This document shows, one piece after another, positions 27,352-27,555 of a stretch of DNA of 27,652 nt (within the stretch, counting starts at the first letter, position 1; the number at the start of each line of letters is the position of its first letter). Source of the DNA: a virus; the IMG/VR virus record IMGVR_UViG_3300050821_012728. One strand, given 5' to 3'. Under the pieces are notes generated by a model. That model saw nothing but the letters and a program-made list of their open reading frames with translations. It was not told the origin of the DNA and did no database searches. The position numbers and the translations under genes are program-made.

Positions 27352-27555
27352 TTAGACGTCGATGCCGTACGTCCCGTTCGGGAAGTACACGACGCCGCCG
27401 CCGTTCGCGGATGCCGCGGCGCCCGCAGCGTTGATCGCGACGGTGTCGTCGGTCGTGCCGTTGCCGGTCGCCCCGAAGTTCCTGACGTTGAAGTAGGTGT
27501 TTTTAGTCCAGGCTCCCCGGATCCTGCGTAGACAAGAACGTTTTCTAGTTGACAT
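27352..27555 (-). pseudogene. Truncated N-terminal fragment of a pectate-lyase/tailspike (right-handed beta-helix) protein, GC-rich
   Basis: YFNVRNFGATGNGTTDDTVAINAAGAAASANGGGVVYFPNGTYGI is the canonical N-terminal motif of Pectate_lyase_3/GH28-like proteins. The ORF stops after 67 aa. The roughly 27360-27520 segment is much more GC-rich than its surroundings. Confidence 0.5.

Follow-up and report, generated by a model that had tools for sequence, protein, structure and literature searches.

A short foreign patch of about 148 bp probably disrupted a small gene of an uncultivated phage with a large genome (about 229 kb), close to the right end of the 27,652-nucleotide stretch of DNA that was analysed as a whole and that we refer to as the window. 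The patch encodes the very beginning of the PF12708 (pectate-lyase-3-like) beta-helix domain of a gene taken from a high-GC organism or a high-GC phage. Read on the minus strand, a phage-like leader of 18 codons runs into this foreign segment and ends at a TAA created at the junction, which together make up a chimeric ORF of 67 codons. The features of the locus are given here in the direction of reading, from the right edge of the window inward.

27602..27652, minus strand: 3' terminus of the 134-aa gene that lies upstream, truncated at the window edge
27566..27571, minus strand: AAAGGA, a Shine-Dalgarno-like motif 10 nt 5' of the ATG of the chimeric ORF
27352..27555, minus strand: chimeric ORF, 67 aa, ATG start, TAA stop
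27502..27555, minus strand: leader MSTRKRSCLRRIRGAWTK, of native composition (codons 1-19: GC3 0.42, GC 0.47)
27354..27501, minus strand: foreign GC3-rich patch, 148 bp, encoding NTYFNVRNFGATGNGTTDDTVAINAAGAAASANGGGVVYFPNGTYGIDV, the first ~46 positions of PF12708
27243..27353, minus strand: open frame KKKWGVNKGETMYGPYNKTEAKRAVKRCGGRVVFIA with its stop codon, shifted +1 relative to the 67-aa ORF (GC3 0.49, phage-like)
26962..27228, minus strand: conserved 88-aa gene, at which homology with strains that have no patch resumes
27245..27652: strain-variable segment, which passes the right edge and has a full length of 699 bp (window-equivalent 27245..27943)

The composition of the DNA sets the patch apart from its surroundings. 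The GC maximum of the window falls on the chimeric ORF, with a value of 0.74 in 100 bp at 27379 compared to 0.65 for the next-best peak and a window mean of 0.49 (sd 0.055), and this peak ranks first at every window size tried (100-200 bp). The maximal-scoring GC segment spans 27364-27475 (112 bp, 74% GC), and a change-point on total GC yields a narrower core at 27390-27475. The shift in GC at the third codon position (GC3) places the borders at ~27354 and ~27501, a span of 148 bp; these borders are sharp, with GC3 resolving them to a few bases, and a 2-nt AA repeat leaves each boundary uncertain by at most 2 nt. Codons 20-67 have a GC3 of 0.958, compared to a mean of 0.48 for 28 genes of the window, and across 5,127 sliding windows of 45 codons GC3 averaged 0.50 (sd 0.10) and never exceeded 0.84. 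As a GC3 of 0.958 lies beyond all native windows, we attribute these ~148 bp to foreign DNA from a high-GC source. Arithmetic from the GC3 figures leaves only ~0.54 for GC at codon positions 1 and 2, and the rise in GC is thus a matter of synonymous codon choice rather than amino-acid content. These measurements support a patch that is foreign to the 49%-GC phage and derives from a high-GC genome. From the relation between GC3 and genome GC, we take its codon usage to fit a genome of ~65-72% GC.

A Pfam profile search identified the encoded product, aligning ORF residues 21-65 with positions 1-46 of the 213 positions of PF12708 (Pect-lyase_RHGA_epim; E = 3.9e-12, 46.9 bits, where the Pfam curated cut-off is 27 bits). 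The significance of this match survives correction for the few hundred small ORFs of the window. The translation, which includes NVRNFGATGNGTTDDT...GGGVVYFPNGTY, contains the N-terminal signature FNVxxFGAxGxGxTDDTxAI...GGxVYxPxGTY. Around 50 residues of the same stretch are matched within 25 PHROG families (best E = 1.1e-11), most of them tail spike or tail fibre families of 600-800 aa, and the ORF also matches the first 40-50 positions of the NCBIfam rhamnogalacturonidase models. The motif occupies positions ~80-330 of 460-880 in PHROG tail spike families. No convincing family match was obtained for the 18-aa leader with HMMER against 1.84 billion representatives or in PHROG; the matches from the representative library mostly begin at query residues 17-22, and few reach back to residues 3-15. 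Translations compared with Pfam contained the rest of the beta-helix domain in no frame, over 1.1 kb downstream and 0.8 kb upstream. An initial annotation had described a GC-rich segment of ~160 bp from a high-GC donor, carrying the N-terminal motif of beta-helix depolymerases in an ORF that stops after 67 aa, and had named windowed GC and codon-usage plots as the check. The plots and the profile match agree with it on each of these points, and no intact gene continuing in another frame, the outcome it had named as a refutation, was seen in these flanks, where the ORF truly ends. It had also linked the truncation to the right edge of the window, a link that falls away because the ORF, on the minus strand, points into the window.

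Searching for exact proteins retrieved the locus from other assemblies, as follows.

L002, Logan SRR34148720, 11 kb: a single mismatch to the window over 7,449 bp, at 21184
L027/L028, Logan SRR34148718, 81,769 bp: a single mismatch to the window over 10,301 bp
L003, ENA ERZ27253567: 100% identical to the window
L001, JGI contig Ga0454605_0000002, 228,894 bp: 98.2% identical to the window until 27244, divergent beyond
L004, Logan SRR19747158: 99.7% identical to the window until 27244, divergent beyond

L002, L003, L027/L028 and the window, four independently assembled contigs, carry the 148-bp patch without a single difference (100% identity), and neither the window nor the 20-kb loci contain a second copy. 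An assembly chimera, in which reads of a GC-rich organism were misjoined near the end of a phage contig, might be suspected of a patch that lies less than 300 bp from the right window edge. L003, a k141 contig, moreover terminates at 27520, 19 bp outside the patch. However, phage sequence stands on both sides of the patch, and the 100% identical sequence came from at least three pipelines and runs. The Logan contigs L002 and L027 extend 3.6 kb and >10 kb, respectively, past the patch and the right window edge, which rules out a chimera at a contig end, and with these observations a misjoin of any kind is scarcely credible. The end of L003 at 27520 could mark a branch of the assembly graph, i.e., a second sequence context of the patch in that sample.

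Comparison among strains revealed that the region around the patch is variable. In L001 and L004, a different 256 bp (L001 9201-9456) replaces the 699 bp of the window type (L002 3372-4070), and the sequences rejoin at window-equivalent 27943; their flanks are ~98-99.7% identical to the window, and the patch and the small ORF that surrounds it are missing. The L001 sequence 5' of the 88-aa gene (GCAGTCGTCG...AAAGGATCA...ATG) aligns with what precedes the 67-aa ORF in the window type, and L001 and L004 are thus without the entire small-ORF cassette. The gene upstream also differs, with a 103-aa allele in L001 and L004 versus the 134-aa allele of the window type, and the two have in common only their first 21 residues and a DTSGKFVD motif, which sits at different positions. 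The 134-aa allele is a genuine gene, since a homologue with 53% identity (P0152) exists in JGI sample 3300047160, a tropical-soil co-assembly. Two alleles of this gene in strains that are otherwise 98-99.6% identical suggest a rearrangement hot spot, and a cassette that is present or absent among near-identical strains marks the locus as a recombination hot spot for accessory genes and not as a tail module. None of the neighbours scored as a tail gene in Pfam or PHROG. The identifiable neighbours of the patch are accessory genes (a DSP phosphatase, a GH25 lysozyme, a DUF1643 protein and an HTH protein), with the dual-specificity phosphatase and small ORFs that have no assigned family directly beside it. 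The phosphatase and the 88-aa gene have no relatives in IMG/VR, and the right end of the window gave no megablast match among GenBank phages.

These comparisons bear on whether a complete foreign depolymerase or tailspike gene once occupied the locus and was later almost entirely deleted, which we regard as possible yet rather unlikely. A remnant of this kind would account for a fragment that comprises the 5' part of the domain and then gives way to unrelated sequence; deletion and replacement are demonstrably frequent at this locus, and the family is very common in viral contigs, with 81 relatives in IMG/VR. It is at odds with the strains themselves, as no tailspike was found at the locus in L001, L004 or any relative recovered, and an intact gene is present in none of them. 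Nor is there anything foreign 5' of the domain start, where the leader is phage-like in composition, and the neighbours include no scored tail gene. It would also take two events, a large insertion and a precise deletion, where one is enough. The initial annotation had read the locus as mosaic exchange of tailspike modules and expected related genomes to hold an intact tailspike there; with accessory neighbours, and with L001 and L004 lacking both a tailspike and the whole cassette, neither expectation found support.

The fragment is almost certainly dead. Its product, which has 46 of the 213 domain positions and lacks the catalytic coils, cannot act as a depolymerase or a tailspike. The ORF resembles the beta-helix domain PF12708, which occurs in phage tailspikes, in pre-neck appendages and in bacterial glycosidases, in its N-terminal signature and its score above the cut-off, but unlike working members of the family it lacks further helix coils, a catalytic region and a particle-binding N-terminal domain, and no tail genes lie beside it. 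In place of a complete beta-helix domain with its catalytic region, the ORF holds profile positions 1-46 only, and the N-terminal particle-binding region and tail-gene module that characterize a tailspike are absent from the ORF and the locus. The ORF is a fragment of a PF12708 family member and not a functional member, and the label 'polygalacturonase' given to it by JGI is an over-annotation.

It is very improbable that the chimeric ORF nevertheless serves as a functional mini-protein or as a regulatory element, whether a decoy or an antisense RNA against a GC-rich gene of a competitor or host. The ATG is preceded by the AAAGGA motif 10 nt upstream, and the ORF is intact and identical in four contigs; however, identity among near-clonal contigs carries no information on selection, and near-identical strains do without the ORF. 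Furthermore, 46 of 213 domain positions are too few for a beta-helix, no RNA family was matched, the predicted fold is no better than shuffled sequence (z = -0.53), and the collections searched, for GTDB among the matches listed, yielded no target sequence of high identity. An RNA element of any other kind was rejected on the same fold score, with no Rfam match at E <= 1 and no tRNA. The AAAGGA motif is similar to those preceding the 88-aa gene in the window and in the L001-type strain, and it is weak evidence. The spacing AAAGGA-N10-ATG was rejected as a mark of typical gene starts, since it is absent from many genes of the phage. No sigma-70-like promoter was found for the ORF. The 67-aa ORF is predicted as a gene in the JGI and Logan data, and it is the sole member of its 90% cluster (P0001).

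We favour the insertion of a short patch into a small native gene. The patch would have entered by illegitimate, microhomology-type recombination or by filler-DNA capture, and its target may have been a native 54-codon phage gene with the 134-aa gene on one side and the 88-aa gene on the other. An insert of 148 bp, a length not divisible by 3, shifts the reading frame, and the event would have produced a chimeric ORF of 67 aa with its stop at the junction and left the old 3' end of the gene out of frame. When 27354-27501 is removed in silico, the leader runs on into KKKWGVNKGETMYGPYNKTEAKRAVKRCGGRVVFIA and its stop codon as a 54-codon ORF, with the AA repeat at the junction, and we infer that the frame at 27243..27353 is the displaced 3' part of the small native gene. 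The stop of this frame (27243-27245) overlaps the ribosome-binding site (AAAGGA) of the 88-aa gene. The restored frame is weak evidence for insertion, because an open frame of 37 codons arises by accident ~1 time in 6 and the exact borders were chosen from the range that the GC3 shift allows. When the fused 54-aa sequence was used to look for the intact 54-codon allele, the chimeric ORF alone came up, and nothing in IMG/VR; the word-indexed protein search used returned one candidate for both short queries, and its silence is weak evidence. It is possible that a larger foreign insertion was trimmed afterwards by deletion, which would give the same picture. Two other sources of such a segment were considered and rejected, a mobile element (no terminal or direct repeats flank the patch) and a DGR template (there is no second copy within 20 kb).

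Insertion of a short patch into a gene has a documented counterpart in SPDIR, outlined in bioRxiv 10.1101/2023.11.22.568220 as the integration of short ectopic DNA guided by microhomology. The locus resembles what is outlined there in that a gene contains <200 bp of ectopic DNA whose borders are sharp and whose junctions show homology of at most a few bases. It differs in that the experiments outlined were performed in Acinetobacter baylyi with patches that were usually shorter than the 148 bp found here. The junction here shows a 2-nt AA repeat only.

Searches for a donor returned relatives of the family and no near-identical sequence. An exact 41-mer has no match in IMG/VR, where the protein scan gave a best match of 69% at the amino-acid level and 77.7% at the DNA level over 112 bp. 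The HMMER search of 1.84 billion representatives produced 11,900 family hits, the best at 72% amino-acid identity, and a protein-pattern scan of GTDB species genomes reached 66% among the matches listed; no near-identical donor appeared in either. Among GenBank phages and plasmids, blastn detected partial matches of 70-89% DNA identity that cover the conserved motif and come from Rhodococcus and Gordonia phages, Deinococcus, Burkholderia and Streptomyces. A scan of JGI metagenome contigs, in a collection that does not contain the phage itself, with the degenerate pattern NAAGAAASANG returned two GC-rich contigs that have nothing but this peptide in common with the patch, by chance. The best protein matches, at 66-72%, occur in bacteria and viral contigs alike, and as the family is abundant in both bacteria and phages, origins from a phage tailspike and from a bacterial glycosidase are not separable.

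The composition of the patch raises the question of its relation to the host. Large phages such as phiKZ have a GC content far below that of their hosts, so that a GC-rich host, as the initial annotation suggested, is conceivable for this phage, although the patch gives only a hint of it. It is doubtful, though conceivable, that a large low-GC phage replicating in a high-GC bacterium recently picked up the patch from the chromosome or a prophage of its host. An attP-like homology patch would be a more specific connection with the host; the phage would then carry part of a host gene and, upon integration, restore or replace the 5' end of that gene. The stretch is indeed short, sharply bounded and host-like (non-phage) in codon usage, and it is fused to a start codon supplied by the phage. 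Yet precomputed Pfam hits and scans found no integrase family among the genes within 10 kb on either side, no near-identical bacterial sequence was present in GTDB species representatives among the matches listed or in JGI metagenome contigs, and sister strains lack the patch. An attP core with a host gene fragment was accordingly rejected, and we give this reading next to no credence.

The locus is ordinary debris of phage mosaicism. Phage genomes become mosaic by illegitimate or relaxed homologous recombination, a subject of the literature of Hendrix and Hatfull (see also PMC3945230 and PMC2884548). As in such mosaics, a short segment is replaced here (699 bp versus 256 bp) between the conserved flanks of near-identical strains, and the new joints lie at the borders of genes or close to them. 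Unlike the usual mosaic modules, the patch derives from a genome whose composition is very different, covers a fraction of one domain and is below the size of a gene. Morons are compositionally distinct extra genes of phage genomes, and the patch is like them in differing from its surroundings in composition and in occurring in only some of the strains. It is unlike them in that it is not an intact gene and has no promoter or terminator of its own that we could detect; the cassette contains no terminator, and within L002 3000-4700 a terminator-like site occurs only once, ~550 bp 5' of the ORF. A moron was rejected on these grounds.

Taken alone the finding has little weight. It is a small footprint, cleanly delimited, of the flow of high-GC DNA into a large 49%-GC phage, and near-identical strains still differ in carrying it. 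Were a donor to be found in the source samples, the exact junctions would reveal the mechanism of joining, the identity of the donor might point to the host of the phage, and the annotation of the ORF as 'polygalacturonase' could be corrected in pipelines. If capture from a host or prophage were true, the locus would represent natural short-patch or filler-DNA capture in a phage genome and its sequence would point directly to the host of this lineage of uncultivated ~229-kb phages, which has no cultured relatives.

Several other genes of the window deserve mention. Its gene content is that of a large phage-like genome, and apart from the neighbours of the patch it encodes RtcB, a metallophosphatase, an ADP-ribosylglycohydrolase, a peptide deformylase and a glycosyltransferase. 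The dual-specificity phosphatase (26277-26702, minus strand) has the CX5R active-site motif CLAGCNRS and a DSPc match at E = 1e-7, just below the Pfam cut-off, along with a weaker match to a polymorphic-toxin phosphatase family. Two small ORFs, at 26049-26264 (minus strand) and 7816-8196 (plus strand), have in common a motif F-x-YW-[ML]-QG ... HL-x-LVF in their translations and look like paralogous small genes of one phage; the former matches PHROG 35763/28500, to which no function is assigned (E = 4e-17). A 167-aa ORF at 20075-20578 (minus strand) combines a helix-turn-helix-like N-terminus with an extreme acidic tail of D/E runs (DDDDDDDDDDASDDDDDDEGDDDDDDEPDDE).

Within 1-1947, the gene for the RtcB ligase (751-1947, plus strand) has a Pfam match that begins at profile position 48, and its ORF begins ...RVFAHDN|T. 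It is preceded in frame by a 161-aa ORF with an IAADG-like motif, a single stop (709-711) lying between the two, and the region of both is cut by the left window edge. RtcB may have been split by a decayed intein or a homing endonuclease. Further along, an 872-aa protein (3467-6085, plus strand) contains domains of the major vault protein (MVP_shoulder, E = 3e-26; Vault_3, E = 3e-11) and is 43-45% identical to unannotated ORFs of LR756500, LR756501 and LR756503, uncultured huge phages of 462-735 kb; a vault-like shell protein is unusual in a phage.
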